DNA of 64,000 nt from positions 832,001 through 896,000 of the forward strand of contig CAVZJB010000016.1 in assembly GCA_963775425.1 (NCBI GenBank). Direction: 5' to 3'. Both the position numbers and the translations under genes were made by a program. Numbering within the stretch: the first letter of the stretch is position 1; every line of letters begins with the position of its first letter. This DNA is from an uncultured delta proteobacterium. GTDB lineage: Bacteria > Myxococcota > UBA727 > VGSZ01. Positions 2,839 to 56,187 of this stretch are shown in pieces. The notes under the pieces were generated by a model. It was not told where the DNA came from, did no database searches, and was given only the letters and a program-made list of their open reading frames with translations.

Positions 2839-3444
2839 GTGTACGTCGTGCGCATGGCCCTCGCGTACCGCTCCCTCACCCCGCGCACCGTGGCCGCCGC
2901 CGCCGGCGCCGCCGTGGGCCTGGCCGCGGTGTTCGTGGACACGCTCGTCCCCGGGAGCCCGCTCGACGTCGTGAAGGACCCGCAGGCTCCCCTCGGAGAC
3001 CTGGTGAACGCCTGGCTGTTCGTGGTGGCGAGCGTCCTCGAGCTCGCCACCATGCTGTTGTGGATCTACGCGGGCGCGCGGAACCTGGTGGCGCTCCGCC
3101 GCGAGGCGCTCCGCTACACGCCGTTCACGTCGGTGGCGTGGTTCTTCATGCCCATCGCGAACCTGTGGATGGGCTACCGCGTGCTCGCCGAGATCTGGCG
3201 CGCGAGCGATCCGGAGGCGCGCGATCCGGCGGCGTGGGTCGAGACCAAGGCGCCGCTCAAGCTGCTCGCCTGGTGGCTCATCACCCTGTGCGGCGTCCTC
3301 GGCGACGACGGCCCCACCGCCGCCGGCTTCGTCGGCGTCGCGGTGAACGCGGTGTCCGCGGGGATGTTCGTGCTGCTCGCGTTCGAGCTGCGCGATCGCC
3401 AGGATGCGCTCGCCGCGCGCCTGTCGCGATCCTTCAGCGAGTGA
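2839..3444 (+). CDS. DUF4328-like membrane protein
   Basis: Several TM segments and the WFFMPIANLWMGYRVLAEIWRAS motif. Confidence 0.7.
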   Translation: MYVVRMALAYRSLTPRTVAAAAGAAVGLAAVFVDTLVPGSPLDVVKDPQAPLGDLVNAWLFVVASVLELATMLLWIYAGARNLVALRREALRYTPFTSVAWFFMPIANLWMGYRVLAEIWRASDPEARDPAAWVETKAPLKLLAWWLITLCGVLGDDGPTAAGFVGVAVNAVSAGMFVLLAFELRDRQDALAARLSRSFSE

Positions 3445-4747
3445 CGTCGCCGGTGAAGCGCATGAGGTCGACGGCGGCGGCGTCGCAGCGGGCGCGGGCG
3501 TGCACGAGGCCGCGCTGGGCGCTGACGGCGCGCGCCTGCACCTCGGCGGCTCGGACCACGTCGGCCTGGCCGGCGTCGAGGGCGCGCTGCACGTCGGCGA
3601 GGCCCTCCTCGACAATCTCCTTCTGGCTGTCCTCGTAGAGCTTGACGAGCGCGGCGGCGCCCTGGAGGCGATCGAAGGCGCTGCGCACGTCGGCCTCGAG
3701 CTCGCGGGCGGCGTCGGCGTAGAGCGCGTCGATGCGTTGCTCGTCGATGGCGGCGGCGCGGCCGGTGTCGGAGAGCGGCTCGAGGAACGGCAGCGCGATC
3801 GAGAGGCGGGCGCGCACGCTGTTCTGCTTGTCGAGCGGCTCGTCGTAGTAGCCGACGAGCACGTCCTCGACGTACGGGGCCCAGGCCGCCCACGCGAGCG
3901 ACGCCTGGATGTGCGCGCGATCGCGGCGCGCCTTGAGGGCCTGCAGGCGGACCGACTGCGTGCGCGCGCGGCGCACGAGCGCGTTGACGTCGGCGGGCGC
4001 GCCCGCGCACAGCGGCGTCGCCGGCGGCGCCAGCGACAGGGGCGCCGCCCGGCCGACGAGCGCGGCGAGCCGGTGCTCGGCGCGATCCGCGTCGCTGCGC
4101 ACGTCCTCGACGTCGGCGGCCGCGTCGAGGCGGCGAAGCGCGACGAAGCGGGCGTCGAGCGCCGTGGCCGCCTCCGCCTGCAGTTGCGCCTGCGTCTGCT
4201 TTTCGAGCCGCGCCGCGATCGCGAGCGCGTTTTCGGCCAGGCGCTCTTCCCCCCGCAGCGCGAGCACCTGGGCGTGCAGGGTGCGCACCTCGGCGGCGAG
4301 GTCGCGCTCGCGATCGACGACGTCGAGGTCGTCGGCCTGGGCCGCGGCGTCGTCGGCGAGGAGATCGGTGAGCTCCGCGGGGTTCGGGGGCTTCCAGTCG
4401 AGGGTGATGAAGGTGTCGTCGAGCACGCCGTAGGCGTTGCCGTTGTTGTCGGTGTGGGGCGTGCCGAAGAGACCATCGGCGCTGCGGTCGCCGACTCGAA
4501 GGCGAAACGGCGCGTACGACAAACCGCGCCGGAGCTTGTCGCGCTCGGCGCCGAGCCTCGCCGCCTGTACGGCCCCGCTGCGCTGGAGCGCGAGGCGCAC
4601 GGCGTCGTCGGGTGTGAGCCCCGCGCGGGGGGGTGCCGGTCCCGAGGGGGCCGGCGCCGGCGACGAGGACGCGGCCGTTGGAGCGGCCGGGCCGGCCGCG
4701 CCCCACGACGACAGGACGAGCCAGAGCGCCGCTGCCGGGAGCGTCAT
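3434..4747 (-). CDS. TolC-family outer membrane efflux protein
   Basis: Signal peptide MTLPAAALWLVLSSWG, LTPDDAVRLAL start motif, two helical efflux repeats, ALDAGQADVVR..DLMRFTG end; ATG at 4747 overlaps the HlyD stop (ATGA). Confidence 0.85.
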   Translation of the reverse strand: MTLPAAALWLVLSSWGAAGPAAPTAASSSPAPAPSGPAPPRAGLTPDDAVRLALQRSGAVQAARLGAERDKLRRGLSYAPFRLRVGDRSADGLFGTPHTDNNGNAYGVLDDTFITLDWKPPNPAELTDLLADDAAAQADDLDVVDRERDLAAEVRTLHAQVLALRGEERLAENALAIAARLEKQTQAQLQAEAATALDARFVALRRLDAAADVEDVRSDADRAEHRLAALVGRAAPLSLAPPATPLCAGAPADVNALVRRARTQSVRLQALKARRDRAHIQASLAWAAWAPYVEDVLVGYYDEPLDKQNSVRARLSIALPFLEPLSDTGRAAAIDEQRIDALYADAARELEADVRSAFDRLQGAAALVKLYEDSQKEIVEEGLADVQRALDAGQADVVRAAEVQARAVSAQRGLVHARARCDAAAVDLMRFTGDVTR

Positions 4748-5877
4748 CGACGAAGCCCGACGACGGTTCCGGCGAACACGACGTCGAACGCCTGCCCCGG
4801 CAAGGGCGCCGGGAGCCCGTCCGCCGTCGACAGCGCGATGTAGATGGCGCGGCCGAACGTGGGCTGCGTGGGCACCACGCGAAAGCGCGGCGGCACCTCG
4901 GCGATCCCCGGCGCCAACGCCCGCACCACGCCCCGCCGCGGCGGCCCGCTCCGGTCCGACGGCCGCATGCTCACCTCGTCCCCGACGTGCACCCGCGGCG
5001 CGGCGCGCTCGTCGACGTACGCGACCACGCGCAGCGGGTGATCGTCGACGATGCTCACGAGCGCCTCGTCCTGCCGCGCCGTGTCCCCTTCGCTCACGAG
5101 CACGTCCGCCACCGACCCCGCAATCGGCGCCTTCAACACCAGGCTGCCCTTGAGGTTCTCGAGCTGCCGCACGCGCTCTTCCTGCGCCGCCACCTCCGCC
5201 CGCGCCGGCGCCACACGCTCCTCGAGCGGGCCCGCCTTCGCGTGCCCCTCCCGCCACGTCCCGAGGCAATCGTGGGTCGCCGCCTCGTGATCGCGGGCGG
5301 CCTTCAACAGGCCGTCGTACTCCGCCACCCGCTGCGCCAGCGACGCCCGGCGCAGCTTCAGCTCGTCGCGCTGCGCCGCCGACGCGAGCTTCTGCTCGAT
5401 GAGCTTGTCCTGCTTGGCCATCAGCTCGTCCAACTGCGTCAGCTCCGCGCGATCGCGCTTGGCCTCCGCCTCCAAAGCCGCGAGGTCCACGGTGGCGCTC
5501 TCCGCCTCCTGCGCCAGGCGCGCCGCGCTCTCGAGGTCGCTCCCCTGAAGATCCAGCTCACGCGCGACCGCGCCCGCCTTGGTGCGCTCGAGCTCCGCGC
5601 GCGCGATGGCGAGCTCGAAGTCGACGGACGCGGGATCGAGCTCCACCAGCGGATCGCCCGCGGCGACGACGTCACCGGGCCGCACCGCCACCTTCAACAC
5701 GCGCGCGGTGCGCGGCGCAGTCACCGACGCCTCCCGCACCTCCGCGCTCGCGGCCACCACGCCCACGGTGCCGATGCCCGGCGCCAGCACGAACACGACG
5801 ACGAGCACCGCCGCCCAGGCGATCCACGGAGACGCGCGCTTGATCCTCGGGTGCTTGCGCAGCGGATCAAAGCTCAA
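4744..5877 (-). CDS. HlyD-family periplasmic adaptor (membrane fusion protein)
   Basis: N-terminal TM helix, lipoyl halves (VAVRPGDVVAAGDPLVELD; LKAPIAGSVADVLVSEGD) flanking a long coiled coil. Confidence 0.9.
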   Translation of the reverse strand: MSFDPLRKHPRIKRASPWIAWAAVLVVVFVLAPGIGTVGVVAASAEVREASVTAPRTARVLKVAVRPGDVVAAGDPLVELDPASVDFELAIARAELERTKAGAVARELDLQGSDLESAARLAQEAESATVDLAALEAEAKRDRAELTQLDELMAKQDKLIEQKLASAAQRDELKLRRASLAQRVAEYDGLLKAARDHEAATHDCLGTWREGHAKAGPLEERVAPARAEVAAQEERVRQLENLKGSLVLKAPIAGSVADVLVSEGDTARQDEALVSIVDDHPLRVVAYVDERAAPRVHVGDEVSMRPSDRSGPPRRGVVRALAPGIAEVPPRFRVVPTQPTFGRAIYIALSTADGLPAPLPGQAFDVVFAGTVVGLRR

Positions 5878-6547
5878 CCGTGGACTCCTGCATCGAGATC
5901 GCCACGTCCTGCGCCCCCGGCAGCGCCGACAGCGCGTGGATGAGCGCCTGCTCCTCGTCGAGCTTCTTGAACGAGAGCTGGTAGGCGAGCTCCATCTCGC
6001 TCCCCTGCGCGACCTCCCGCAGCGTCACCAGGGCGAAGCGTGTGCAGTGCGCGCGCAACACCTCCCGGAGCTTTTCGCCGGGCTCCTTCCCCGACGGCAG
6101 TCGCAGGCGCACGATGCCGTCGTACTGCCGCTGCGCGCCGAACCCCGTCAGGCGCAGCGTCGCGGCCACCGCGCAAAACAGCGTGGTGCCGACGACCCCG
6201 GTGGCGTAGTTGCCGGTGCCCGCGGCGATGCCGGACCCGAACGCCGCGAAGATGAACACCATGTCGAGCGGGTCGCGCAGGTTGGTACGGAACCGGATGA
6301 GCGCCAGCGTCCCGACGATGCCGATGCCGCGCGCGAGGCTGTTGCCGATGGCGAGCATCAACATCGCCGCCACGATGCCGCCGACGACGAGGGCCTGCAC
6401 GAAAGAGCGCGAGTACGACAAGCCGCGATAGGTCCACGCGTAGACCGCGCCGATGGTCTGGCTCATCAGGTACGCGACGAGGATCGACGCCACCGCCTGT
6501 CGCATGGTGGCGACGTCGAGAGCGCCGAGCTCGGTCCAGGTATCCAT
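5867..6547 (-). CDS. DUF4956 membrane protein (MgtC-like TM bundle plus C-terminal ACT-like domain)
   Basis: YSRSFVQAL, IGNSLARGIGIVGTLALIRFRTNLRDPLD signature; typical neighbour of VTC genes. Confidence 0.9.
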   Translation of the reverse strand: MDTWTELGALDVATMRQAVASILVAYLMSQTIGAVYAWTYRGLSYSRSFVQALVVGGIVAAMLMLAIGNSLARGIGIVGTLALIRFRTNLRDPLDMVFIFAAFGSGIAAGTGNYATGVVGTTLFCAVAATLRLTGFGAQRQYDGIVRLRLPSGKEPGEKLREVLRAHCTRFALVTLREVAQGSEMELAYQLSFKKLDEEQALIHALSALPGAQDVAISMQESTVEL

Positions 6548-6612
6548 CGGTTCGCGGAGGAGAGCAGCCCCGCCTCCGATCCTCAAGTTACGCGCATCCA
6601 GCCGGTCCGCGA

Positions 6613-7395
6613 TCAGCCGGCGGCGACGGGCTCACGGCGCGCCGCGTCGAGGAGGGTGTCGCGGGCGTAGCTGCGCAGCACGCCGACGCCGTATTTGGAG
6701 AAGCCGCGGCGATCGAGCTCGAGCGTACGAAGCATGTGCACGATCCAACGCGGGACCTCGCGCTCGAACTTCACCTCGAGGAGCACCCGCGGATCGCTCT
6801 CGTCCATGGCGACGGGGTCGTCGGCGGCGCACCAGTGCGCGGGATCGCCCGCGAGGGTCCAGTCGCGGCAGCGCTGGAACTGGAGCCGGGAGTCGAAGGT
6901 CACGCGCGCGTAGCTCTCGGTGACGCCCTTATAGGCCTTGCGCTCGTAGCGCACGAGGAGGGCGGGCTCACAGCGGAAGCGGTCGCGGCGCGCACAGAAG
7001 TCGCGCTCGACGGCGGTGGTGCCCATCCCGCGCGCCCGCTCGAGCCACGCCTCCGGCGGGATCACGGCGCGGCGCTTGACGGTGATGTCCATGAGCTTCT
7101 GCTTCACCTCGAGGAACACCGGGCTGTCGCCCAGGCGCTCCCCGTAGCGCCGCACGCGCAGCTTGAAGCGCCGGCCGGTGCCGAGCTCCCACTCGCGCCA
7201 GAACGTGAGGCGAGGCGAGTCGAGGTAGAGGCTGGTGACGAGGTAGCGGCCGCCGGGCTCCTTCGCCGAGCTCTCGTCCTCGACGCAAAACGGCGCGATC
7301 AGCCGGTGCACCGCCTCCGCCTGCGCCAGCGTCAGCAGGAACTTGTGCTCGTAGCGCGGGGGGATGTCGTCGCCCGCCCCGCGCGCCTCGCTCAC
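6613..7395 (-). CDS. VTC-domain polyphosphate polymerase-like protein (CYTH superfamily)
   Basis: RYEHKF, SLYLDSP, KLRVRRY, FLEVKQK, RYERKAY, RVTFD, LLEVKF, FSKY; GTG at 7395 overlaps the ferredoxin stop (GTGA). Confidence 0.92.
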   Translation of the reverse strand: MSEARGAGDDIPPRYEHKFLLTLAQAEAVHRLIAPFCVEDESSAKEPGGRYLVTSLYLDSPRLTFWREWELGTGRRFKLRVRRYGERLGDSPVFLEVKQKLMDITVKRRAVIPPEAWLERARGMGTTAVERDFCARRDRFRCEPALLVRYERKAYKGVTESYARVTFDSRLQFQRCRDWTLAGDPAHWCAADDPVAMDESDPRVLLEVKFEREVPRWIVHMLRTLELDRRGFSKYGVGVLRSYARDTLLDAARREPVAAG

Positions 7396-7685
7396 GAGCC
7401 CTTCCGGAAGCGCGAGGGGAACCCCGCGGGGAAGGCCTTCTTCGGGTGCAGCCGTTGGGCGCGGCGCAGCAGCTCGACCTCGGGCTCTTCGCGATCGGGG
7501 TCGGGCAGGCACGCGTCCACGGGGCACACGCGGGCGCACGCTTCCTCGTCGTGGAACCCCACGCACTCGGTGCATCGCACCGGATTGATGACGTACAGCT
7601 GCTCCCCCGGCGAGATGGCGCTGTTCGGGCACGCCGGCTCGCACAGCCCGCAGTTGATGCAATCGTCGACGATGAGCGTGGCCAA
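7392..7685 (-). CDS. yfhL: YfhL-family 2x[4Fe-4S] ferredoxin
   Basis: CINCGLCEPACP and CTECVGFHDEEACARVCPVDAC. Confidence 0.93.
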   Translation of the reverse strand: MATLIVDDCINCGLCEPACPNSAISPGEQLYVINPVRCTECVGFHDEEACARVCPVDACLPDPDREEPEVELLRRAQRLHPKKAFPAGFPSRFRKGS

Positions 7686-7749: not shown

Positions 7750-9375
7750 GTGGTGCCCCCCGAGTACGAGCCGAGCCCGCTGTCCGCCCCCTGGTTCCGC
7801 GCCGTCCTGGTCGGCGTCGCCGCGGCGCTCGTCGGCCTGCTCGCGGGCCTCATCGTCGAGGCGTGGTGGGCCGCGGCCGTCGCCGCCGGCGCCGGCGCCC
7901 TCCTCGGCACCTGGGTGGTCCTCGCCATGCCGGCGCCGGAGGCGGAGCTGCTCGCCCGTTGGACCGAATACCTCCTCGATCACCCCCACGAGCGGGTCCC
8001 CGAGGGCCTGCCGGGGGTCCACGGCGCCCTGGCCCGCCGGATCAACTCGCTGATCGCCCGCGACGCGCCCCGGCCCGGGGCCCTCGTCCCGGCCACGCCG
8101 GCGGCGCCGGCCAAGAGCGAGGCGCCCAAACAGCCGACGGAGATCATCACGGTGCTCGCCGAGGCCCAGCGGCACGCACAGAACCAGGGCAGCTCCCTCG
8201 ACGACACCAGCGCCGCCATGGCCGAGATGGCGGCCACCGTGCGCACCATCGCGGCCAGCGTCGACTCGCTGGCCACGTCGGCGGAGGAGAGCGGCTCGAG
8301 CATCCTCGAGATGAGCGCCATCAACGACGAGATGGCGGAGAACATCCAGGAGCTCGCCGGCGCCATCGAGGAGACGGCGGCCTCCATCGAGCAGATGATC
8401 TACTCCATCAAAGAGGTCGCCAAGAACATCGAGGACCTCGCGTTGGCGGCGGAGCAGACGTCGACGTCGATGAACGAGATGGAGGCCTCCATCAACCACG
8501 TCGAGGAGAACGCCACGGCCACGGCGCGGCTGTCCGAGGACGTGATCCGCGACGCCGAGCGCGGCGCCGACGCCGTCAAGCGCACCCTGTTCGGCATCGA
8601 CGAGATCCGCCAGTCGTCCCGCACCGCAGGCGAGGTCATCCGGCAGCTCGGCGAGCGCATCGCCGCCATCGGCAACATCTTGAACGTCATCGACGACGTC
8701 GCCGAGCAGACCAACCTGCTGGCGCTCAACGCCGCCATCATCGCCGCGCAGGCCGGCGAGCACGGCCGCGGCTTCGCCGTCGTCGCCGACGAGATCAAGG
8801 ACCTCGCCGAGAGGACCGGCGCCTCCACCAAGGAGATCGCCGAGCTCATCCGCTCGGTGCAGGAGGAGTCGAGGAACGCCGTCACCGCCATCTCGCGCGG
8901 CGAGCGCAGCGTCGAGGCCGGCGTGAACCTCTCGCAGGCCGCGGAGGGCGCGCTCACGGAGATCGTGAGCTCGGCGGGCAAGGCCACGGAGATGGTGAAG
9001 GCCATCGCGCTCGCCACCGTGGAGCAATCCAAGGGCAGCAAGGTGGTGGCCGACGCCGTCGACCGCATCGCCCGCACCGTCCAGCAGGTGGCGGCGGCCA
9101 CGGCGGAGCAGGCGCGCGGCTCCGAGCAGATCATGCGCAGCACCGAACGCATGAAGACCCTGTCCACCCACGTGGAGCTGTCGTCGCAGGAGCAGTCCAA
9201 GGGCAGCAAGCAGATCGCAGGCGCCATCGAGCACATCAGCGAGATGGTGCGGCAGCTCCACCAGGCGCAATCCGAGCAGGCCCGCGGCAGCGAGCAGCTC
9301 CTGGCGGCGGTGGAGCAGCTCCGCTCGTCGCAATTCCGCCAGATCGAGATCCTCGAGCGCGTCGCCCGCCGGTAG
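7750..9375 (+). CDS. Methyl-accepting chemotaxis protein
   Basis: Two N-terminal TM helices; [43 protein letters not shown] hairpin tip. Confidence 0.95.
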
Positions 9376-9559
9376 GCACCGCCGCGGCCACCCCTCGCCG
9401 CGGCCGGGAGCCCGCCGGCCGGATCCGCGGGACAGCACGCCCCGCGCGCCGCTGACGAGCCCGCCCGCGACGGCCGTCGTTGCGGCGGAGGGGCCCGAGG
9501 CGTACCTTGTCCCATCGCTTGGGACCCGTCGACGCGGTCGTCCCTTCGAGGAGGCCTGC

Positions 9560-10039
9560 GTGTTCGGCATCGGGATGAGCGAGATGGTGATCATCCTCGC
9601 CGTGGCGCTCCTGGTCTTCGGGCCCGACAAGCTGCCCGACATCGCCAAGCAGATCGCCAAAGGGCTGAAGGAGCTGCGGCGCGCCGGCGACGACCTCCGC
9701 GCCAGCATCGACTTCGACCTCGACGACGACAACCCGCGCCGCCGCCGCATCCCCCCGCCCCGCCAACCACCGGCGAACATCCCCAACAGCGCCCTCGCGG
9801 ACAAGCTGCCCGCCGAGGACGACGGCCCGCGCCTCAAGGACGTGTGGCCCAAGCCCGCCGACGGCGCCGTCGCGCAGAACGCGTCACCCTCGAGCCCCGC
9901 CTCCCCCGGCAGCGACGCGACCGCCGCGGAGCCGGCGGCTGCTGCGGCGCCGGCTGCGGCTGCGGCGACGGGGGCGGCGCCCGCTTCCCCGGCGCCGCCG
10001 TCCGCGGGCGCGGGGAGCGCGCCGAAGGGCGAGGCGTAG
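9560..10039 (+). CDS. tatB: Twin-arginine translocase subunit TatB
   Basis: MFGIGMSEMVIILAVALLVFGPDKLP; long Pro/Ala tail; GAGGAGG RBS; directly upstream of tatC. Confidence 0.9.
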   Translation: MFGIGMSEMVIILAVALLVFGPDKLPDIAKQIAKGLKELRRAGDDLRASIDFDLDDDNPRRRRIPPPRQPPANIPNSALADKLPAEDDGPRLKDVWPKPADGAVAQNASPSSPASPGSDATAAEPAAAAAPAAAAATGAAPASPAPPSAGAGSAPKGEA

Positions 10040-10885
10040 ATGGACGAGCGCGAGTACTCGTTGCTGGAGCACCTCACCGAGCTGCGCGGGCGGCTCGCCA
10101 AGGCGCTCATCGGCGTCGCCCTCGTCGCCGTCGCCGCCTTCGGCGTCTCCGATACGCTGCTCGAGGTCATCCGCGCGCCGATGCAGGTGGTGCTCGTCAA
10201 GCACTACGGGCCCACGGCGCACTTCGTCACCACGGGCGCCGCCGAATACTTCGTGTGCCAGATGAAGGCCGCCATCGTCGCCGGCATCTTCGTGGCGAGC
10301 CCATGGGTGCTCTACCAGATCTGGTCGTTCATCGCGCCCGGCCTGTACGAGCACGAGAAGAAGTACGTCGGGTGGTTCGTCGGCGCGGGCGCCTTCTGCT
10401 TCATCGGCGGCGCCGTCTTTTCGTACTTCATGGTCTTCCCGCAGATGTACGGGTTCTTCGTCTCCCAGCAGCCGGCGGACGTGCAGATGCTGCCGAGCCT
10501 CGACGAGAACTTCACGTTCACGCTGAAGCTGTTGGTCGCGTTCGGCGGCGTGTTCGAGACGCCGGTGGTGATCTTCATCCTGTCCATGGCAGGGATCATC
10601 GATCCCAGCACGCTCGGCAAGTACCGCCGCTACGTCGTCGTCGTCGCGTTCATCATCGGGGCCGTGCTCACGCCGTCGCCGGACATCTATTCGCAGTGCT
10701 TGATGGCGGGCCCGCTCCTGCTTTTGTACGAGATCGGGGTGCTCGTCTCGCGCATCACCGTGAAGATGAAGGGTCGTCCGCTCTCGCGGAAGGAGCGCGC
10801 CGCCGAGGAGGCCGCCAAGAAGGCCGGCACCGCCATCGTCCCCGCGGAGCCGCAGCCGCCGCCTGACGAGAAGCCGCCGCAGTGA
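10040..10885 (+). CDS. tatC: Twin-arginine translocase subunit TatC
   Basis: LLEHLTELRGRL, YQIWSFIAPGLYEHEK, FETP, LTPSPD, LLYE. Confidence 0.97.
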   Translation: MDEREYSLLEHLTELRGRLAKALIGVALVAVAAFGVSDTLLEVIRAPMQVVLVKHYGPTAHFVTTGAAEYFVCQMKAAIVAGIFVASPWVLYQIWSFIAPGLYEHEKKYVGWFVGAGAFCFIGGAVFSYFMVFPQMYGFFVSQQPADVQMLPSLDENFTFTLKLLVAFGGVFETPVVIFILSMAGIIDPSTLGKYRRYVVVVAFIIGAVLTPSPDIYSQCLMAGPLLLLYEIGVLVSRITVKMKGRPLSRKERAAEEAAKKAGTAIVPAEPQPPPDEKPPQ

Positions 10886-12438
10886 TCGGCCTCGTCGTCG
10901 CCGGGGCCCTCGCCGCCGGTGTCGTCGTCGACGCCACAGCCGCGGCCGAGACCCGCGCCACGGAGGCCGGCCCGACGTCCGCCACCGACACCGGCGGCGG
11001 CGGCCTGTTCGGTGCGCTCGTCCTGCGGCCGGGCCTCTCGGGCGCCGTCGAGCGCGGCGGCTTCGCGCTCGCGGCGTCGTACAGCCCGCAGCTCTCGATG
11101 GTCACGACCTCGCTCGCGCCGGCCATCCTCAACGCCGGCGACCTCCGCGCCGAGGTGCCGTTCGGACCGCGCTTTCGCCTGCGCGTCAACGCGGGCGGCT
11201 CCATCGGCGACCTCGACCCCGGCACCGCGCAGGGCGTGCTGTCGTCGAGCGCGGGCCTGCTCGCGCCGGTGGCCGCCCTCTCGTTCGCGAGCGCCAACGC
11301 GGGCGTGGGCGCGGCCGCGCGGCTGACCCGCACGGTCAGCCTCGACGTCGACGCCCGCGGCGCCGTCACGGGCTCCCCCGACGGCAGCGCGCTCATCGCG
11401 CCGTCCACATCGGGCGGCCTCGACGCGACGCTCGCGTGGCAAGCGTGGCGCACCGACGCGTTCACGGTCGGCGGCGAGGCCCGCTCGCTCGCGGTCGACG
11501 GGCGCGGCAGCGTCGTCGGCGGCGCACCCACCGTCGGCTGGCGCCACCAGCTCGGTCCGTCCTCCGGCGTCGACGCGCGCGCCGGCCTCGGCGCCGTCGC
11601 GCTCACCACCGGCGGCGCCGACGACGGCGTCTACGCCCTGCCCGCCTTCGCGGTGGCCGCGCACGCGCTCCTCGACGTCGCCGGCTCCCCCAAGCTCGAG
11701 GTGAACGGCGGGGCGGGGCTCGATCTCTCCAACGATCCGCTCGGCGCGCTCCTCGACGACCGGCTGAGCGCCAGCCTCGGGCTCGGCTTCCGGGCGACGC
11801 GCGAGATCTCGTTTCACGTCGACAGCGCGGGCTTCTGGTCCGTCTTCTCCGTGAACCCGCCGCGCAAGGTGAACGGCGTCGACATCGAAAACCCCGTCTC
11901 CACCGCGCTCGTCGCCAACCGCGGGAGCATCTCGTGGGAATTCACCGACGGCGCGTCCCTCGAGCTGTCGGCGCTCAGCACCACGCGTCTCGTCGGCAGC
12001 TTCCTCGCCACCGACGCCACCGTCGGCCTGAGCGTCAACGGCACCATCCCCGTCTTTCACGCAGGCGACCGCCCGGAGGGCTCCGATCCTCGAGCCGGCC
12101 GCGACATCGGCGTCGAGCGCGTGGCCGCGCCGCCGCCGCCGGGCTCGACCACCATCGAGGCGCCGCCCCCGTTGCCCGAGGTGCCCGAGGAGCCCCCGGT
12201 TCCCCCGGCGCTCGCGGCGCCGCCGCCGAACATCCCCATCCTCGAGGCGCCGCTCAACCTGCCGAGCCTCCACGAAGGAAACGACAAGCTGCGCGACGCG
12301 AGCAAGGCCGCGGACGACAAGCGCGACAAGAAGAAGCGCGACAAGAAGAAGCACGCGGGCGACAAGGCGCTGGGCCTCGACGACACCGCCCCCGCCCCCG
12401 TCGCGCCCAAGGACCCGCAGCCGGCCGCGACCCCCTGA
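10882..12438 (+). CDS. Hypothetical exported protein, possible beta-barrel with Pro-rich/basic tail
   Basis: Signal-like N-terminus, Gly-rich amphipathic beta segments; GTGA overlap with tatC. Confidence 0.6.
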   Translation: MIGLVVAGALAAGVVVDATAAAETRATEAGPTSATDTGGGGLFGALVLRPGLSGAVERGGFALAASYSPQLSMVTTSLAPAILNAGDLRAEVPFGPRFRLRVNAGGSIGDLDPGTAQGVLSSSAGLLAPVAALSFASANAGVGAAARLTRTVSLDVDARGAVTGSPDGSALIAPSTSGGLDATLAWQAWRTDAFTVGGEARSLAVDGRGSVVGGAPTVGWRHQLGPSSGVDARAGLGAVALTTGGADDGVYALPAFAVAAHALLDVAGSPKLEVNGGAGLDLSNDPLGALLDDRLSASLGLGFRATREISFHVDSAGFWSVFSVNPPRKVNGVDIENPVSTALVANRGSISWEFTDGASLELSALSTTRLVGSFLATDATVGLSVNGTIPVFHAGDRPEGSDPRAGRDIGVERVAAPPPPGSTTIEAPPPLPEVPEEPPVPPALAAPPPNIPILEAPLNLPSLHEGNDKLRDASKAADDKRDKKKRDKKKHAGDKALGLDDTAPAPVAPKDPQPAATP

Positions 12439-16758: not shown

Positions 16759-16840
16759 TGCGAGCGGGGGGAATTGAACCCCCACGAGTTGCCCCACTGG
16801 AACCTAAGTCCAGCGCGTCTACCAGTTCCGCCACGCTCGC
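16759..16840 (-). tRNA. tRNA-Leu (anticodon TAG), CCA not encoded
   Basis: Reverse complement GCGAGCGTGGCGGAACTGGTAGACGCGCTGGACTTAGGTTCCAGTGGGGCAACTCGTGGGGGTTCAATTCCCCCCGCTCGCA folds into a cloverleaf with long variable arm; upstream of tig. Confidence 0.97.
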
Positions 16841-17536: not shown

Positions 17537-17839
17537 ATGAAGAACATCGTTGCCCGTGTTTTGCTCGCCGCCCTCGTCGCGGTTCCCGTCGCGGTCATCT
17601 CGGGCTGCCCCGAGGACACCAAGAAGGAGGAGCCGCCTCCTCCGCCGCCGCCGCCGCCGCCGCCGCCGGCCGCAGCGCCGGCCATCCCGGACTACAACCC
17701 CGTGGGTGACGACGCCGACCTGAAGAAGCAGGGCGCCGCCGGCATCGACGACAAGAACGCCGCGCAGAAGGCCGCTGAGCTCGAGGGTGCCCTCGACGCC
17801 CAGATCAAGGACCTCGAGGCCAAGAAGGCCACCAAGTAG
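17537..17839 (+). CDS. Small lipoprotein with poly-Pro linker
   Basis: Lipobox ISGC, poly-Pro tract, helical C-terminus. Confidence 0.8.
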   Translation: MKNIVARVLLAALVAVPVAVISGCPEDTKKEEPPPPPPPPPPPPAAAPAIPDYNPVGDDADLKKQGAAGIDDKNAAQKAAELEGALDAQIKDLEAKKATK

Positions 17840-17950
17840 GGCGGGGGCTCGTCCCCCGCCTCGTAGGGCGGGGGCTCGTCCCCCGCTTCGGTGGGCGGGG
17901 GCTCGTCCCCCGCCTCGTAGGGCGGGGGCTCGTCCCCCGCTTCGGTGGGC
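17836..17950 (+). repeat. Tandem array of four 27-bp GTAG-type REP palindromes
   Basis: Unit GTAGGGCGGGGGCTCGTCCCCCGCCTC (third copy begins GGTG) at 17836, 17863, 17890, 17917. Confidence 0.9.
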
Positions 17951-17975
17951 GCCTCCAGGGCGGCCGCCGGAACAG

Positions 17976-18005
17976 AGCGCCCCCGCCTTCGGGGGCGCTT
18001 TTTTT
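17976..18005 (+). terminator. Rho-independent terminator
   Basis: AGCGCCCCCG-CCTT-CGGGGGCGCT stem-loop followed by a T-run. Confidence 0.88.
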
Positions 18006-18020
18006 GTTAGAAGCGAGCCC

Positions 18021-20240
18021 ATGGCCGAACCCACCCGCGCCCTCCTCGAACGCTTCTCGGATTCGCTCTCCAGCGAGCACCGCGCCCGGCGGAGCATCTT
18101 GTCGTTCGAGGAGTACCTCGACGACGTCTACGAGCACCCCCGCCGCCACCTGAGGAACGCCGCCCAGTACCTGATGGACGTCGTGGACCACTTCGGCAGT
18201 GAAGAGGTCACGCTGCCCACGGGCAAGTTCGTCCGCCACAAGCTCTTCGACGCCGCCTTCGACGACGGCCGCGGGCGCGTCGCCGGCCAGGAGCGCGTGC
18301 AGCAGCAGATCGTGCGCGTCCTCGAGAACTTCGTGCGCTCCGGCCGCATCGATCGCCTGGTGCTCCTCCACGGGCCGAACGGCTCCGCCAAGACCAGCAT
18401 CATCCAGGCGTTCACCCGCGCCTCCGAGGTCTATTCGAGCACCGAGGAGGGCACGCTGTACCGCTTCAACTGGGTGTTCCCGACGGGCCAGGTCTCCAAG
18501 GGCACGCTCGGCTTCGGCGGCGGCGCCTCCCGCACGTCGGGCAGCTACGCGCACCTCGCGGCGGAGAACGTCGAGGCCCGCCTGCCCTGCGAGTTCAAGG
18601 ACCACCCGCTCTTGCTCCTGCCGCGCGAGGACCGCGCCCAGCTCTTCGCCGAGCTCCTGAAGGCCGACCGGGTCCCCCGCGACTGGGCCATCCCCGAGAT
18701 CCTCAAGGTGGGCGACCTCAGCGTCAAGAACCGCAAGATCTTCGACGCGCTGATGACGCACACGCAGGGCGACGTGCGCGAGGTGTTGCGCCACGTGCAG
18801 GTCGAGCGCTTCTACCTCTCGCGGCGCTACCGCACCGGCGTCGTCGCCGTGGAGCCGCAGATGAGCGTGGACGCGTACTCGCGCCAGGTCACCGCGGACC
18901 GCTCCTTGGCGATGCTGCCGGTGGCGCTGCAGCACCTCTCGCTGTTCGAGACGGCCGGCGCGCTCAACGACGCCAACCGCGGCGTCCTCGAGTTCAACGA
19001 CCTGCTCAAGCGGCCGCTCGACGCGTGGAAGTACCTCCTCGTCGCCACGGAGCAGGCGCAGGCCAGCCTCGACCACGTGAGCGTGTTCCTCGACGTGGTG
19101 ATGGTGGCGTCGTCCAACGAGCTGCACCTCGACGCCTTCAAGCAACACCCGGACTGGCCGAGCTTCAAGGGCCGCATGGAGCTCGTGACCGCCCCGTACC
19201 TCTTGCGCGTCGCCGACGAGATCAAGATCTACGAGGACCAGGTGCCGCGCGCGCTCACCGGCGTGCACATCGCGCCCCACGCCCTCGAGGTCGCCGCCCG
19301 TTGGGCCGTGCTCACGCGGCTCGAGCCGCCTGACCCCGACGCCTACCCCGAAGACGTCAAGCGCCTCGTGGGCGAGCTGTCGCCCATCGAGAAGATGCGC
19401 CTGTACGACAACGGCAGCGTGCCCGAGCGCCTCACCCAGAAGGAGCGCAAGGAGCTGCGCCAGGCGGCCTTCCTGCTGTACGACGAGCACGCCGCGCGCG
19501 ACGAGTACGAGGGCCGCTACGGTGCCAGCGCGCGCGAGGTGCGCACGGCGCTGTTGAACGCCGCGCAGGATCCGCACTTCGACCACCTGTCGCCCATCGC
19601 GGTCTTCGAGGAGCTGCGGACCCTGGTGCGGGCCAAGTCGACCTACGACTGGCTGCGCCGCGAGCCCACCCGCGGCTACCGCGACGCCTCGGACTTCGTG
19701 TCCATCGTCGAGGAGATGTACGTGAGGGACCTCGACGAGGAGATCCGCACCGCCATGGGCCTCGTGAAGGCCGGCAGCCACGTGGACATGTTCGGCCGCT
19801 ACATCCGCCACGTCTCGGCGTGGACCAAGCGCGAGAAGCTCCCGGACCCGGTCACCGGCAAGCTGGTGGAGCCGGACGCCGACTTGATGAAGCGCGTCGA
19901 GGACGTGCTCCTGCCGCCGCAGGAGTCACCCGAGGACTTCCGCCGCTCGCTCATCGGTCAGATTGGCGCGTACAAGCTCGAGCACCCCGACGACAACGTC
20001 GACTACGAGCTCTTGTTCGGCATGTACATGAAGCGCCTCAACGAGGACTTCTACAACCAGCGCAGAAAGGCCGTGCTCCGCCTCGAGCAATCCTTCTTCA
20101 AGGTGCTCGACGGCGACGACAAGGACATCGACGCCAAGGAGCGCGAGCAGGTGGAGACGTTCAGGAAGAGCCTCCACGCGCTCGGCTACAACGACGGCTC
20201 AGCGCGCAGCGCCATCGCGTTCCTCATGAGGCGCCGCTGA
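18021..20240 (+). CDS. prkA: PrkA/YeaG-family AAA+ serine protein kinase
   Basis: LLHGPNGSAKTS Walker A, CEFKDHPLLLLP, GALNDANRGVLEFNDLLK, YEGRYGASARE. Confidence 0.9.
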   Translation: MAEPTRALLERFSDSLSSEHRARRSILSFEEYLDDVYEHPRRHLRNAAQYLMDVVDHFGSEEVTLPTGKFVRHKLFDAAFDDGRGRVAGQERVQQQIVRVLENFVRSGRIDRLVLLHGPNGSAKTSIIQAFTRASEVYSSTEEGTLYRFNWVFPTGQVSKGTLGFGGGASRTSGSYAHLAAENVEARLPCEFKDHPLLLLPREDRAQLFAELLKADRVPRDWAIPEILKVGDLSVKNRKIFDALMTHTQGDVREVLRHVQVERFYLSRRYRTGVVAVEPQMSVDAYSRQVTADRSLAMLPVALQHLSLFETAGALNDANRGVLEFNDLLKRPLDAWKYLLVATEQAQASLDHVSVFLDVVMVASSNELHLDAFKQHPDWPSFKGRMELVTAPYLLRVADEIKIYEDQVPRALTGVHIAPHALEVAARWAVLTRLEPPDPDAYPEDVKRLVGELSPIEKMRLYDNGSVPERLTQKERKELRQAAFLLYDEHAARDEYEGRYGASAREVRTALLNAAQDPHFDHLSPIAVFEELRTLVRAKSTYDWLRREPTRGYRDASDFVSIVEEMYVRDLDEEIRTAMGLVKAGSHVDMFGRYIRHVSAWTKREKLPDPVTGKLVEPDADLMKRVEDVLLPPQESPEDFRRSLIGQIGAYKLEHPDDNVDYELLFGMYMKRLNEDFYNQRRKAVLRLEQSFFKVLDGDDKDIDAKEREQVETFRKSLHALGYNDGSARSAIAFLMRRR

Positions 20241-40117: not shown

Positions 40118-40292
40118 CTCCCTGGCTCGACGACGACGGTGCCTGGCTGCGGAGGTGCACTGAACAGCCGTCCCCCGGGGCGACCAGCCCCGCGATCATT
40201 CGACGACCGACGAGCTGGTGACGACGACGGCGCCAAGAAGAGGACGCCCGTGAGCCGGCGCCGCGCTACCATGACCCGCTTTGAGGTCCCCC

Positions 40293-41909
40293 ATGCGCTC
40301 TTGCACGATTGCCCTGCCGCTCCTCCTGTGCACGCTGCTCCTCGGCGCGCTCTCCCTCGGCTGCCCGCCCAGCCCCGCGAGCGAGGGCGAAGGAGAAGGC
40401 GACGCCGGCGAAGGCGAGGGCGAGGGCGAAGGGGAAGGGGAAGGTGAGCCCGGCGAAGGTGAAGGCGAAGGTGAAGGAGAGGGTGAAGGAGAGGGAGAGG
40501 GCGAAGGAGAGGGAGAGGGCGAAGGAGAAGGAGAGGGCGAAGGAGAAGGAGAGCCCCCCTGCGTCGCCGACGGCGACTGCCACAACGGCCTGCGCTGCGA
40601 CGTCCCAAGCGGGGCCTGCGTCGTCTGCCTCGGCGACGCCGACTGCGATCAGCAGGCCGGCGAGAGCTGCGTCGACGGCGACTGCGTGCAGCAGTGCGCC
40701 CGCAGCGCCGACTGCGTCGCCGACCCCGCCCGCGCCGTCTGCGACACCACGCGCGGCCAGTGCGTGGGCTGCGTGACGTCCAACGACTGCGACTTCGGCT
40801 CCGTCTGCGTCGACGACGCCTGCGAGGCCGGCTGCACCGTCGACAACGACTGCGGCCCCGGCGCCGTCTGCGAAGGCGCCGCCGCCGGCGTCCTCGGCGA
40901 ATGCGTCGCCGCCTGCGCCGGCGACGCCGACTGCGCCCTCGGCACGCACTGCGACAACGGCACCACCTGCGTCCTCGGCTGCAACGGCGACGACACCCGC
41001 TGCGGACAAAACCAGGTCTGCGCCGGCGATCGCTGCGCCACGGCGTGCAGCGCCGCGCGCGACTGCCCCGCCGGCGAGCGCTGCGACGCCGCGGGCGGCG
41101 CCTGCATCGCCGGCTGCGCCACCAACGACGACTGCGCCGGCGCCATCTTCTCGACCACCCCGGTGTGCGACACCGGCACGGGCCAGTGCGTGGGCTGCCT
41201 CGCCGACGCCGACTGCACCGCCATCAACTCGAACCTCCAGTGCGACGAGCCCGCGCAGCAGTGCCGCAGGACTTGCGACCCTGCGCAGAACAACGGCACG
41301 TGCTTCGCCCAGTTCGGCGCCGGTACCTGCGACACCGACGGCCTCTGCGTCGAGTGCACCGTCGACGACGACTGCCGCGCCGGCGAGACCTGCACCAACC
41401 GGACGTGCACCGTGCCGCCGGCGGCGTCGCCGCTGTGTCAGGTGTGCAACAACAATCTCGACTGCGGCGGCAGCGGCAGCACGAACCAGTGCATCCGACA
41501 CCCCGAGAGCCCGAACGGCGCCAGCGAGACCGTCTGCGCCCAGGACTGCTCCGACGGCAGCGCCTGCCCGAGCGGCTTCTCCTGCGAGCTGGTCAGCGAC
41601 GTCGACGTGCGCGGCGGCGTCGTCACGGGCCAACAGTGCGTGCCGAGCAACAGCGCCGTCGCCTTCCCCACCTGCGACGCGCTCCGGGACACCCTCGACG
41701 CCGCGGCCTGCCTGGCCAACTTCGGCGCCGCCTGCGGCTTCGACGCGCCCGGGGCCGGCGACGGCGTCTGCCTGCCGCCCGACGCCAACAGCAACAGCGG
41801 GGTGTGTACCCTGCCCTGCGGGGCAGCCACCGACTGCCCCGACGGCTTCACGTGTGAATCCGTCGCGTTCCCGGATTTCCCGGTGGACGCCGCCTGCGTT
41901 CCTCTGTGA
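40293..41909 (+). CDS. Cys-rich repeat lipoprotein with poly-GE linker
   Basis: SLGC lipobox, (GE)n, many CxxDxDC repeats. Confidence 0.88.
   Translation: MRSCTIALPLLLCTLLLGALSLGCPPSPASEGEGEGDAGEGEGEGEGEGEGEPGEGEGEGEGEGEGEGEGEGEGEGEGEGEGEGEGEPPCVADGDCHNGLRCDVPSGACVVCLGDADCDQQAGESCVDGDCVQQCARSADCVADPARAVCDTTRGQCVGCVTSNDCDFGSVCVDDACEAGCTVDNDCGPGAVCEGAAAGVLGECVAACAGDADCALGTHCDNGTTCVLGCNGDDTRCGQNQVCAGDRCATACSAARDCPAGERCDAAGGACIAGCATNDDCAGAIFSTTPVCDTGTGQCVGCLADADCTAINSNLQCDEPAQQCRRTCDPAQNNGTCFAQFGAGTCDTDGLCVECTVDDDCRAGETCTNRTCTVPPAASPLCQVCNNNLDCGGSGSTNQCIRHPESPNGASETVCAQDCSDGSACPSGFSCELVSDVDVRGGVVTGQQCVPSNSAVAFPTCDALRDTLDAAACLANFGAACGFDAPGAGDGVCLPPDANSNSGVCTLPCGAATDCPDGFTCESVAFPDFPVDAACVPL
40383..40553 (+). 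repeat. In-frame 6-bp Gly-Glu repeat
   Basis: (GGNGAR)n. Confidence 0.9.
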
Positions 41910-41977
41910 AGTTCCTACCGTGAGAGGGTCACCGCGCCCCGTCGCAGACGCGGCCGCGGCAAGCACAGGAGACAGCG

Positions 41978-42589
41978 ATGTGGCGCTACGACGATGACGA
42001 CGACGATCACGACAACGACGGCAAGAAGAGCAAGAAGCCCGGTCGTATGGAGGACCGCCTCCTCGACGCGCGCACGCTGATCATCGCCGACGAGGTCAAC
42101 GACGCGCTCTATCGGCGGGTGGCCACCATGCTCACCCTCCTCGAGCGCAAGGATCGCAAGGCGCCCATCACGGCGTTCGTGAACTCGCCCGGCGGGTCCG
42201 CGGACTCGGGCTTCGCCATCTTCGACCTGTTCCGCTTCTCGCCCTGCCCCATCACCACCGTCGCCAACGGCGTGGTGGCGTCGGCGGCGGTGCTCATCTT
42301 CCTCGGCGCCCCCCAGGGCCGCCGGGTGAGCCTGCCCAACGCGCGCTTCCTCCTGCACCAGCCCTCGACGGCCACGCGCGGGCAGGCGAGCGACATCGAC
42401 ATCACCGCGCGCGAGATCTCCAAGCTGCGCCACCGCTACAACGAGGTCGTGAGCGAGGCCACCGGCAAGCCCATCGAGGTCGTCGAGAAGGACAGCGATC
42501 GCGACTTCTGGCTCACGGCGCAGGAGGCCGTGGACTACAAGCTCGCCAACCGCATCTTCACGTCGCGCGCGCAGCTCGAAGAGCTCTAG
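41978..42589 (+). CDS. clpP: ATP-dependent Clp protease proteolytic subunit (orphan paralog)
   Basis: VNSPGGS, GVVASAA (Ser), LLHQP (His), DRDFWLTAQEAVDY (Asp). Confidence 0.93.
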   Translation: MWRYDDDDDDHDNDGKKSKKPGRMEDRLLDARTLIIADEVNDALYRRVATMLTLLERKDRKAPITAFVNSPGGSADSGFAIFDLFRFSPCPITTVANGVVASAAVLIFLGAPQGRRVSLPNARFLLHQPSTATRGQASDIDITAREISKLRHRYNEVVSEATGKPIEVVEKDSDRDFWLTAQEAVDYKLANRIFTSRAQLEEL

Positions 42590-51196: not shown

Positions 51197-51751
51197 TCAC
51201 CCCAACCAGCCGCGGATCTCGCCGTGCGGCTGCGGGATGAGCTCGATGCCGACGACGCGGTCTTCGCGCGCGCCGTCCTTCACGGCGTCGAGGGCGGCGG
51301 CGACGTCGGCGAGCGCGCCGGCGAGCGTGAACCAGCCCTTGCCGCCGACGCCGACGGCGAGGTGCATGCGCAGCACGGCGACGTCGACGGCCTTGAGCGC
51401 GGTGTCGGCGGCGAGCACCGCCGCGGCAGCCGTGCTCATCTCCACGATCCCGACGGCGTCGCCGGGCGCGGGCGCCACGGCCTGATCGATCGCGGGCAGG
51501 AGCTGCGGGTGCGCGCCGGGGAGGAACAGCTCGTCGACGAGGTCGGAGCCGGCGACCTCGAGGGCGACGGCGTGCGACTCGCGCGTGGCCTCGACGTCAC
51601 CCCCGAAGATCACGAGGAGCTTCCCGGGCGTGACCGGCTTCGCGTGCTTCACCGTCACCGGCGCCTTCTTCACGAGCGCGTCGAGCATGACGAGGCCGCG
51701 GGCGATGGACCCGGTCTCGACGACGGCGACGGCTTCGAGCGAAGAGCGCAT
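51197..51751 (-). CDS. Tandem-domain BMC shell protein (BMC-T)
   Basis: VETGSIARGLVMLDALVKKAPV..PGK..GDVEA and VGIVE..AADTALKAVDV..GVGGKG..IPQPH. Confidence 0.92.
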   Translation of the reverse strand: MRSSLEAVAVVETGSIARGLVMLDALVKKAPVTVKHAKPVTPGKLLVIFGGDVEATRESHAVALEVAGSDLVDELFLPGAHPQLLPAIDQAVAPAPGDAVGIVEMSTAAAAVLAADTALKAVDVAVLRMHLAVGVGGKGWFTLAGALADVAAALDAVKDGAREDRVVGIELIPQPHGEIRGWLG

Positions 51752-51808
51752 CGACCTTCCATGACGTCCGCGGGAGCGCCGATACACGGGCGCCCTACCC
51801 GTCGCCGG

Positions 51809-52360
51809 CTACACCTTCGGCGACGGCGCCTTCCTGGTGAACTTCTTTTCGTACGCGGCCAGGGAGCGCTCGACCACCTTCACGGCCTCGTCGAGCCCGA
51901 GCGGCGCGGCGACGCGCACGTCCTTCTCCTCGAGCGCCTTGTAGTCGCCGAAGAAGCGCATGACCTCGTTCATGCGGAAAGGCGCGAGGTCGTCGAGGGT
52001 GCGCACGCCGTCGAACATCGGGTCGCCGATCATCACGCCGATGATCTTGTCGTCGACGTCGCCCTGGTCGATCATCGGCATCACCCCGATGACGCGCGCG
52101 CTCAACAGCGCCCCCGGCTGCACGTCCTCCTGCGAGAGCACCAGGACGTCGAGGGCGTCGCCGTCGTCGTCGAGGGTCTGCGGGATGAAGCCGTAGTTGG
52201 CGGGGTAGTGGATGGCCCCGTAGAGCACGCGGCTCGCCCGCAGGAGGCCGGAGTCCTTGTCGATCTCGTACTTGACGCGGCCCCCGCGCGGGATCTCGAC
52301 GAAGACGTCCACGACGCGCGGGACGCCGCTTCCGGGGCTCAGATCGTGCCAGGCATGCAT
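51809..52360 (-). CDS. ppa: Inorganic pyrophosphatase (family I)
   Basis: VEIP, KYEIDK, YPANYGFIPQTL, DDGDALDVL, DDKI, FFGDYKALE. Confidence 0.96.
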   Translation of the reverse strand: MHAWHDLSPGSGVPRVVDVFVEIPRGGRVKYEIDKDSGLLRASRVLYGAIHYPANYGFIPQTLDDDGDALDVLVLSQEDVQPGALLSARVIGVMPMIDQGDVDDKIIGVMIGDPMFDGVRTLDDLAPFRMNEVMRFFGDYKALEEKDVRVAAPLGLDEAVKVVERSLAAYEKKFTRKAPSPKV

Positions 52361-52403
52361 GCGCGCGGTTGTAGACCGCCCGGGGTGCTCCCGTCGACGC
52401 CCC

Positions 52404-52427
52404 GTACGGCGGGGGCTCGTCCCCCGC
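52404..52427 (+). repeat. Single REP copy (GTAC variant)
   Basis: GTACGGCGGGGGCTCGTCCCCCGC; flanks resemble those of the 29444 copy. Confidence 0.8.
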
Positions 52428-56184: not shown

Positions 56185-56187
56185 GGG

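Follow-up and report, generated by a model that had tools for sequence, protein, structure and literature searches.

Our findings point to an undescribed bacterial exporter, perhaps for polyphosphate (polyP), encoded in a 64,000-nucleotide stretch of DNA from an uncultured delta proteobacterium of the Myxococcota (contig CAVZJB010000016.1, positions 832,001 to 896,000 of the forward strand; hereafter the window). Five co-oriented genes on the minus strand of the window, at 3434-7685, encode a YfhL ferredoxin, a protein of the VTC polyP polymerase family, a DUF4956 membrane protein, a HlyD-type adaptor and a TolC-type channel, and the last four of these (the module) recur as a set across several phyla. 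We consider it likely that the module is a trans-envelope exporter in which VTC and DUF4956 form the inner-membrane part. The complete proposal, in which VTC and DUF4956 replace the pump of a four-gene exporter that extrudes polyphosphate, we place at a probability of roughly 45%. The five genes, from first to last in the direction of reading, are listed below.

7392..7685, minus strand: YfhL-type 2x[4Fe-4S] ferredoxin, 97 residues, TTG start; NCBIfam NF033683 (equivalog) at 103.9 bits against a cutoff of 86, with Pfam Fer4_7 and Fer4.
6613..7395, minus strand: stand-alone VTC, 260 residues, GTG start; PF09359 at 114.9 bits against a cutoff of 23.
5867..6586, minus strand: DUF4956 inner-membrane protein, 226 residues (ATG 6547) or 239 residues (TTG 6586); PF16316 at 44.6 bits against 30.6.
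4744..5877, minus strand: HlyD-family periplasmic adaptor, 377 residues, TTG start; HlyD_3 at 65.3 bits and HlyD_D23 at 50.5 bits.
3434..4747, minus strand: TolC/OEP-family outer-membrane channel, 437 residues, ATG start; PF02321 at 60.5 bits in two stretches.

Reading frames were picked from third-codon-position guanine-cytosine (GC) content together with Pfam matches in a window of about 72% GC; third-position GC backs all five frames, and all five products pass curated Pfam or NCBIfam cutoffs. An earlier interpretation made from the window alone (the sequence-only reading) had described five co-oriented genes with GTGA, 11-nucleotide and ATGA overlaps and a gap of about 65 nucleotides, and this is what the junctions contain when read directly. 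The ferredoxin stop and the VTC start share a GTGA, the DUF4956 and HlyD genes overlap by 11 nucleotides, and the HlyD stop and the TolC ATG share an ATGA. The gap between VTC and DUF4956 measures 65 nucleotides with the ATG at 6547, the start that lines up with homologue N-termini, and 26 nucleotides with the TTG at 6586.

An order shared by 78 of 80 related loci is far beyond chance. VTC relatives of similar length numbered 559 at E <= 0.001, the best non-self ones being 62-64% identical; those with a named source are labeled as Deltaproteobacteria, Myxococcales and Acidobacteria metagenome-assembled genomes (MAGs). To locate gene neighborhoods, 185,579 species genomes were scanned with a 13-sequence VTC alignment, which replaced a first alignment of 28 sequences that was too diverse for a locus scan; the scan matched 268 loci, and all counts out of 80 given here refer to the best 80 of these 268, ranked by likeness to the window VTC. 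The window genome is not among the best 80, of which the top match is 49% identical. By record title they comprise 35 Kiritimatiellota, 20 Verrucomicrobiota, 9 Myxococcota or 'Deltaproteobacteria', 7 Lentisphaerota, 2 Bryobacteraceae, 1 Omnitrophota, 1 PVC group, 1 contig (3 kilobases, kb) binned as Bifidobacteriaceae and 4 unclassified records, and the module is carried, by record labels, in Myxococcota, Acidobacteriota, Kiritimatiellota, Verrucomicrobiota, Lentisphaerota and Omnitrophota. VTC, DUF4956 and HlyD lie on one strand in the same order in all but two loci by phmmer searches with the window proteins; one of the exceptions ends inside DUF4956 (L003), and the other is a lone VTC paralogue (L056) whose MAG also holds a full module (L047).

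A channel gene is usually present as well. Clustering of the open reading frames (ORFs) around the module revealed two families directly after HlyD, an OEP-matching type in 37 loci and a 409-residue Pontiella type in 24, and the Pontiella-type genes, none of which has a Pfam match, are divergent TolC relatives (hhalign probability 99.5%, E 3e-22, 366 columns). By alignment-built profiles the full VTC-DUF4956-HlyD-OEP order is present in 64 of the 80 loci, and one further TolC-like locus (L010, hhalign probability 97%) brings the count to 65, so that the HlyD and TolC linkage first noticed in a single genome is recurrent in several phyla. Eight of the 15 loci with no TolC-like gene end inside HlyD or no more than 400 nucleotides after it (L002, L030, L044, L050, L051, L068, L070 and L076); five have room after HlyD yet no TolC-like gene (L042, L045, L059, L061 and L062), and L003 and L056 complete the set. 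The genes are also closely spaced, with starts set by the profile-expected N-terminus rather than by closeness to the upstream stop: the median junction is 16 nucleotides from VTC to DUF4956, 12 nucleotides from DUF4956 to HlyD (74 measured loci) and -4 nucleotides from HlyD to the TolC-like gene, a pair that overlaps in 49 of 64 loci. The two Bryobacteraceae loci have a module adaptor of 688 residues, with about 300 extra C-terminal residues (L004, 11485-13548; L028, 11488-13551). A Phytase-like (PF13449) domain on these adaptors is marginal, at 30.1 bits against 27.6 in L004 and with no match at E <= 1e-3 in L028, and we made no use of it as evidence.

The ferredoxin does not share in this conservation. 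Its gene is probably co-transcribed with VTC in the window, because its stop overlaps the VTC start as GTGA, and the sequence-only reading had counted it within the unit; a ferredoxin homologue adjoins VTC in 0 of the 80 related loci, the single weak match (L020) lying 3.6 kb downstream of the adaptor gene. On this comparison the ferredoxin is a lineage-specific passenger outside the module. VTC and DUF4956, together with an EmrA-like adaptor and a TolC-like channel, make up the conserved unit, which very likely is a functional unit as well.

The absence of a pump gene claimed for the operon extends to the whole window. Among the 46 window ORFs run against Pfam there was no ABC, RND or MFS pump and no CotH kinase; window ORFs of at least 60 residues, in six frames over 64 kb, held no ABC-ATPase motif; and the only real many-segment ORF in a hydropathy scan is TatC. 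A 10-segment ORF at 40269-42080 (minus strand) was rejected as a shadow frame with a third-position GC of 0.66. No ABC, RND, MFS or PET transporter lies in the operon, and none recurs across the best 80 loci, in which the ORF clusters found in at least five loci, beyond the module and shadow frames, are CotH giants, Cthe_2159 and one unknown 390-residue family. ABC-type ATPase motifs occur in 4 of the 80 loci and ORFs with at least eight membrane segments in the flanks of 9, never within the module in either case. Under a looser rule, a same-strand membrane-like ORF within 4 kb was present in 14 loci, and 10 of these ORFs, when run against Pfam, proved to be two ion channels, two Rce1-like proteases, CNNM, RnfD, one FUSC (from a separate second system) and three without a match; the four left out of the Pfam run were three giant ORFs (two CotH-matching, the one in L014 not) and one ORF in L056. 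Two loci contain an ordinary second system directly downstream of the module, OEP-HlyD-FUSC in L075 (14308-19336) and OEP followed by an ABC ATPase in L034 (9344-13419). In the Pontiella group, an Ion_trans/Ion_trans_2 channel gene was observed just upstream of the module and on the same strand in L005 (8683-9675) and L008 (4507-5544).

Bacteria with a single membrane provide a natural comparison. A tblastn search of PLSDB with VTC identified four monoderm records, from Paenibacillus, Acetoanaerobium, Nonomuraea and Enterococcus, and DUF4956 directly follows VTC in all four loci; their four VTCs fall on one side of a tree branch with support 90/99. Among the ORFs of these loci there was no match to the adaptor or OEP profiles, and the neighbors are instead CotH, two-component regulators, Cthe_2159 and a protein resembling phospholipase D. 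Adaptor and channel thus accompany an outer membrane and are missing without one, which is what an export function of VTC-DUF4956 predicts. The Paenibacillus locus (L081) carries a Cthe_2159-type beta-helix gene with a lipoprotein-like N-terminus directly after VTC-DUF4956 (9482-11377), and an ORF family typified by L057 8121-9995, whose representative is weakly Cthe_2159-like (E 5.8e-9), occurs in six module loci.

The VTC protein is proposed to be a cytoplasmic polyP polymerase, on the strength of its homology to yeast Vtc4. Its PF09359 match spans profile positions 2-232 of 235, and the protein consists of the VTC domain alone, with no signal peptide, SPX domain or membrane domain; none came up when longer VTC relatives were sought, though this counts as weak evidence. 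Among 177,635 solved sequences the VTC family profiles match only yeast Vtc4, Vtc2 and Vtc3 at E up to 10, Vtc4 best at 5.8e-18, and hydrolytic tunnel enzymes gave no match among solved structures even at that threshold. Residues K18, R80, R82, K98, E207 and K234 align with Vtc4 K200, R264, R266, K281, E426 and K458; the first five are invariant in VTC alignments of 28, 13 and 31 sequences (A1, A2 and A4), and K234 is invariant in A1 and A2 and conserved to at least 90% in A4. We take K200 and K458 to have their accepted roles in Vtc4, the lysine of the S-K-Y/F motif, equivalent to K458, being presumably essential. PMC9911596 describes a Vtc4 R264A/R266A/E426N mutant that is catalytically impaired and inactivates yeast VTC, and a complex of five subunits that builds a channel lined with basic residues directly below the tunnel exit; yeast VTC couples synthesis of the chain to its passage through this channel. 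In a maximum-likelihood tree of 35 VTCs, made up of 31 module-type sequences (the window and 30 of the 80 loci) and the 4 monoderm sequences, the window clusters with L001 and L002, both of them Myxococcota loci (support 99/93); L070, L075, L079 and L080 were left out of the tree, their start calls having clipped the N-terminal motif.

DUF4956 is proposed to be the membrane partner or conduit of VTC. By hydropathy the family has approximately five hydrophobic segments followed by a conserved soluble C-terminal domain of about 90 residues, and PF16316 is matched by all 36 aligned members. Weak matches to MgtC (PF02308) cover the membrane part in 29 of the 36, the best at E 1.6e-5 and all below the Pfam gathering score of 31.4 bits (L055, for example, at 23.1 bits); the window protein itself has no match to MgtC at E up to 0.1. 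An RFR motif (R98-F99-R100) does not vary among module loci or the four monoderm relatives, and in an inferred topology the conserved R60, R98, R100 and R104 are predicted to lie in cytoplasmic loops if the C-terminal domain is cytoplasmic. This is a large family of 7,188 representatives (E <= 0.001), the best 150 of which are all stand-alone proteins of no more than 284 residues. Two longer candidates were dismissed as fusions: P0121, an apparent DUF4956-HlyD fusion, reads as a frameshifted run-through of two adjacent genes, and P0122, which combines half a DUF4956 with a part resembling glycosidases, was not accepted as real.

The adaptor and channel belong to well-known structural families, though the adaptor stands apart from the subfamilies that serve known pumps. 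In the window adaptor a short basic tail at the N-terminus leads into a single membrane helix, and the rest of the protein comprises a lipoyl domain, a hairpin of helices about 170 residues long (88-187 across the family) and a beta-barrel; sequence comparisons gave no match to a membrane-proximal domain. The hairpin motif of adaptors, [RK]-x3-L, is present in the window protein and kept in most family members. The best solved match of the family profile is EmrA (4TKO, 2.6e-29), while the window adaptor scores 54.2 bits against the EmrA/EmrK model TIGR00998, below its cutoff of 390.8, and falls below every NCBIfam adaptor-subfamily cutoff, including the DevB, RND, type I and CzcB models. When compared with the module adaptor profile, ordinary adaptors found elsewhere in these loci reach only 1e-8 and 1e-21, and module copies score 1e-22 to 1e-138, the weakest being contig-truncated or divergent. 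These cutoffs and scores, together with the lack of a recurring pump nearby, place the module adaptor outside the ABC and RND operon families. EmrA is the adaptor of EmrAB-TolC, whose pump, EmrB, is an MFS protein with no large periplasmic domain, and an EmrA-like adaptor would therefore fit a small membrane partner such as DUF4956. The window channel has an N-terminal signal-like peptide, and its family profile gives near full-length matches to SilC, VceC, OprJ, CusC, OprM and TolC (best E 7.8e-23).

CotH kinase genes are frequent neighbors of the module, lying within 10 kb in 27 of the 80 loci; among the 37 loci that offer at least 18 kb of sequence, 21 have one. The window has none within 64 kb by Pfam and a six-frame scan. 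Many are giants of 1,300-2,100 residues that combine a CotH kinase with several lamin-tail domains, often in PVC-group loci; L069 5068-9960 (Pontiella sulfatireligans F21), L036 5826-9923, L071 3498-9269 and L013 2725-9090 are examples with signal-like N-termini. Judged by eye, the N-termini of the CotH and Cthe_2159 proteins resemble signal or lipoprotein peptides, as do most of those among 14 CotH ORFs from module and monoderm loci, three being unclear and probably having over-extended starts. Because of these N-termini, CotH would leave the cytoplasm via Sec, which argues that the module is not its secretion system. The idea can be raised that the exported product might serve the extracytoplasmic CotH neighbors. 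In the literature found, bacterial VTC, DUF4956 and CotH appear only in gene-cluster descriptions and transcriptome tables. One such table (PMC10434189) lists the adjacent, co-regulated DUF4956 and DUF2490 genes BT3498-BT3499 of Bacteroides thetaiotaomicron, and DUF2490 might be a different outer-membrane partner in Bacteroidota.

We propose that the cytoplasmic Vtc4-like tunnel enzyme would take gamma-phosphates from a nucleoside triphosphate and join them into a polyphosphate chain, and that the chain would be passed to a DUF4956 oligomer whose conserved arginines, in the YSR and RFR..R loops, are predicted to lie on the cytoplasmic side. From DUF4956 the polymer would exit through the adaptor-TolC duct to the cell surface or medium, and the inside-negative membrane potential could help to drive the polyanion outward. 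The cargo is probably polyP, as judged from Vtc4 homology and the logic of coupling; the role of DUF4956 as conduit and the contacts among the four proteins are likewise what we infer. A bolder form of the proposal, which we regard as conceivable with the odds somewhat against it, is that the module would be the first bacterial secretion system devoted to an inorganic polymer, with DUF4956 as a pore, VTC docked on it and polyP made from ATP threaded, with help from the membrane potential, through the EmrA-like adaptor and TolC-like channel. If that were true, the module would add a fifth class of inner-membrane engine for adaptor/TolC systems and supply a missing route for bacterial extracellular polyP, and polyP at the surface could be a substrate or scaffold for secreted CotH kinases or polyanion-binding proteins. 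Accessible portions of PMC10653871 and PMC12772234 report that some bacteria secrete polyP or accumulate it extracellularly, and no polyP exporter is named in the literature we found.

Several observations weigh against this proposal. The count of 78 in 80 describes the clade closest to the window VTC and not all bacterial VTCs, and the monoderm sample comprises only four loci. Bacterial VTCs have R-x-E-x-K in place of the R-x-T-x-K of Vtc4, and the extra glutamate, as we assume, resembles hydrolytic enzymes of the same fold. The window TolC-like protein has a net charge of -11 and an isoelectric point of 5.15, and the Pontiella type has a median charge of -10.5; bulk charge, though a crude measure, offers no indication that the duct is positively charged. 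The longer relatives included no genuine fusion joining DUF4956 to VTC or HlyD, and DUF4956 has no sequence match to solved structures, including the Vtc membrane chains. The weak MgtC likeness of DUF4956 is also to be read with the parts of PMC6658541 and PMC7980370 available to us, in which MgtC acts via partner proteins rather than as a channel. A full-text literature search, which lacks coverage of most subscription journals, found no paper on a bacterial VTC protein making polyP, and within the same coverage none on the four-gene module. In sum, the polyP synthesis-and-export interpretation of the sequence-only reading holds up in part: the recurrent linkage, an adaptor outside the ABC and RND families and the monoderm pattern speak for it, while the ferredoxin has dropped out and DUF4956 resembles MgtC weakly, with no relation in sequence to the membrane domain of yeast Vtc.

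The main rival to polyP export keeps the same machine and changes the role of the enzyme, such that VTC would be a triphosphate-hydrolyzing motor that energizes DUF4956 to export a different substrate, for instance an ion, a peptide or a small molecule, by way of the adaptor-TolC duct. Most enzymes of the triphosphate-tunnel fold hydrolyze triphosphates; the four-gene order with no canonical pump fits this alternative equally well, and the R-x-E-x-K glutamate that is absent from yeast Vtc4, as well as TolC-like proteins that are acidic overall like ordinary efflux channels, lean its way. It is countered by the retention of Vtc4-type residues and by profiles that find Vtc4, Vtc2 and Vtc3 and no hydrolytic tunnel enzyme, and we know of no precedent for transport driven by the tunnel fold; we judge a VTC motor unlikely. 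Next in rank is a role for DUF4956 as an MgtC-like regulator or anchor, in which the module would monitor or tune phosphate or magnesium balance at the envelope and the adaptor and channel would serve a transporter encoded elsewhere. The 29 of 36 members with weak MgtC matches and the five loci with room and no TolC-like gene after the adaptor are in keeping with such a role, as is the tie of Salmonella MgtC to phosphate homeostasis via partner proteins (PMC6658541 and PMC7980370, as far as their accessible text goes). It accounts poorly for an adaptor that follows DUF4956 at a median of 12 nucleotides in 74 loci of several phyla and that forms its own family, distinct from the ordinary adaptors of the same loci, and a remote pump would not explain why adaptor and channel are missing from just those bacteria that have no outer membrane; we find this regulatory role decidedly improbable.

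Far less credible is that the module is a type-I-like secretion system for the neighboring giant CotH/lamin-tail proteins, even though an adaptor and TolC make up the outer part of type I systems and CotH genes, many encoding 1,300-2,100 residues, lie within 10 kb in a third of the loci (27 of 80). The signal- or lipoprotein-like N-termini seen by eye in most CotH proteins indicate Sec rather than type I export, the window carries the module with no CotH in 64 kb, monoderm CotH neighbors occur with neither adaptor nor channel, and no ABC ATPase lies within the module. Chance adjacency or a genome-specific rearrangement, for which nothing speaks beyond the lineage-specific ferredoxin, can be regarded as refuted by an order kept in 78 of 80 loci across six phylum labels.

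Features in the rest of the window were also recorded. On one side of the five-gene locus lies a chemoreceptor gene that diverges from it (7750-9375, plus strand), and on the other a DUF4328 gene that converges on it (2839-3444, plus strand). Between 3200 and 7950 no promoter-like site was found, and the one terminator-like site equals the number expected by chance. The sole PADLOC defence-system match, a weak DndD on the coiled part of TolC (E 3e-4), was disregarded. The only Rfam family in the window is one transfer RNA gene (Rfam 58.5 bits; 16759-16840, minus strand); it lies inside the longest ORF call for trigger factor, and the true start of trigger factor is therefore downstream of the first start codon of that ORF. 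A PrkA-type serine kinase (17724-20240, plus strand) and a Hanks-type serine/threonine kinase (57675-60077, plus strand) fit the Myxococcota-like affinities of the module genes in the tree. A bacterial microcompartment (BMC) locus at 51197-56493 on the minus strand includes, unusually, a pyrophosphatase among the following genes.

51197-51808, minus strand: tandem BMC-domain shell protein.
51809-52714, minus strand: inorganic pyrophosphatase with an N-terminal extension of about 136 residues.
54703-56187, minus strand: aldehyde dehydrogenase.
56188-56493, minus strand: EutN/CcmL vertex protein.

Our findings highlight a four-gene module, in at least five phyla, that joins a homologue of a polyP polymerase to an envelope-spanning duct with no pump, and it makes both a polyP export route and the function of bacterial VTC, DUF4956 and CotH directly testable with a small construct. 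If our proposal holds, the coupling of polyP synthesis to translocation, so far the preserve of eukaryotic VTC, would exist in bacteria too in a different membrane setting. Like the eukaryotic complex (Vtc4/Vtc3/Vtc1), the module has an enzyme of the same Pfam catalytic family with the tunnel residues kept, obligatorily paired with a small membrane protein that bears conserved basic residues. The module VTC differs in being 260 residues alone, with neither an SPX nor a fused membrane domain; its partner is the MgtC-like DUF4956 rather than the three-helix Vtc membrane domain; and its proposed target is the cell exterior across two membranes, whereas that of the eukaryotic complex is the vacuole. 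A VTC-DUF4956 core is also shared with a Gram-positive CotH cluster: according to the available text of 10.1101/768473, cotH, polyphosphate polymerase, DUF4956 and DUF4832 genes adjoin pel genes in streptococci, clostridia and bifidobacteria, and CotH lies beside the core in Enterococcus and Nonomuraea as it does in 27 of the 80 module loci. The Gram-positive cluster is without an adaptor or TolC-like gene in all four loci found here, and none is mentioned in the portion of 10.1101/768473 available. The window, unlike this cluster, has no CotH in its 64 kb.

The likeness of DUF4956 to MgtC/SapB lies in a weak profile similarity over the membrane part and in a similar layout, with a small soluble domain on the C-terminal side of the membrane domain; the matches are all under the Pfam gathering score, and to our knowledge MgtC does not pair with VTC, adaptors or TolC. 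The concept of a polymerase that feeds an export path is that of synthase-dependent exopolysaccharide secretion, as for cellulose, alginate and Pel, in which an inner-membrane polymerase feeds the growing chain into an envelope-spanning path. They rely on glycosyltransferases, periplasmic scaffolds and dedicated beta-barrel porins, whereas the module would use an adaptor-TolC pair for a product proposed to be inorganic, and it would amount to a new kind of secretion system if polyP export were proven. With the EmrAB-, MacAB-, AcrAB- and HlyBD-TolC systems the module shares the families of its adaptor and channel, EmrA being the closest solved adaptor, the operon-style overlap of their genes and, in most members, the [RK]-x3-L motif. 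It departs from them in having no ABC, RND, MFS or PET transporter, in an adaptor below all subfamily cutoffs and in an inner-membrane side that consists of an enzyme and a protein of about five helices. By this comparison of its genes, the module appears to be a variant of adaptor/TolC export with an inner-membrane engine that has no precedent, and if our reading holds, this engine would be of a new kind for adaptor/TolC systems.

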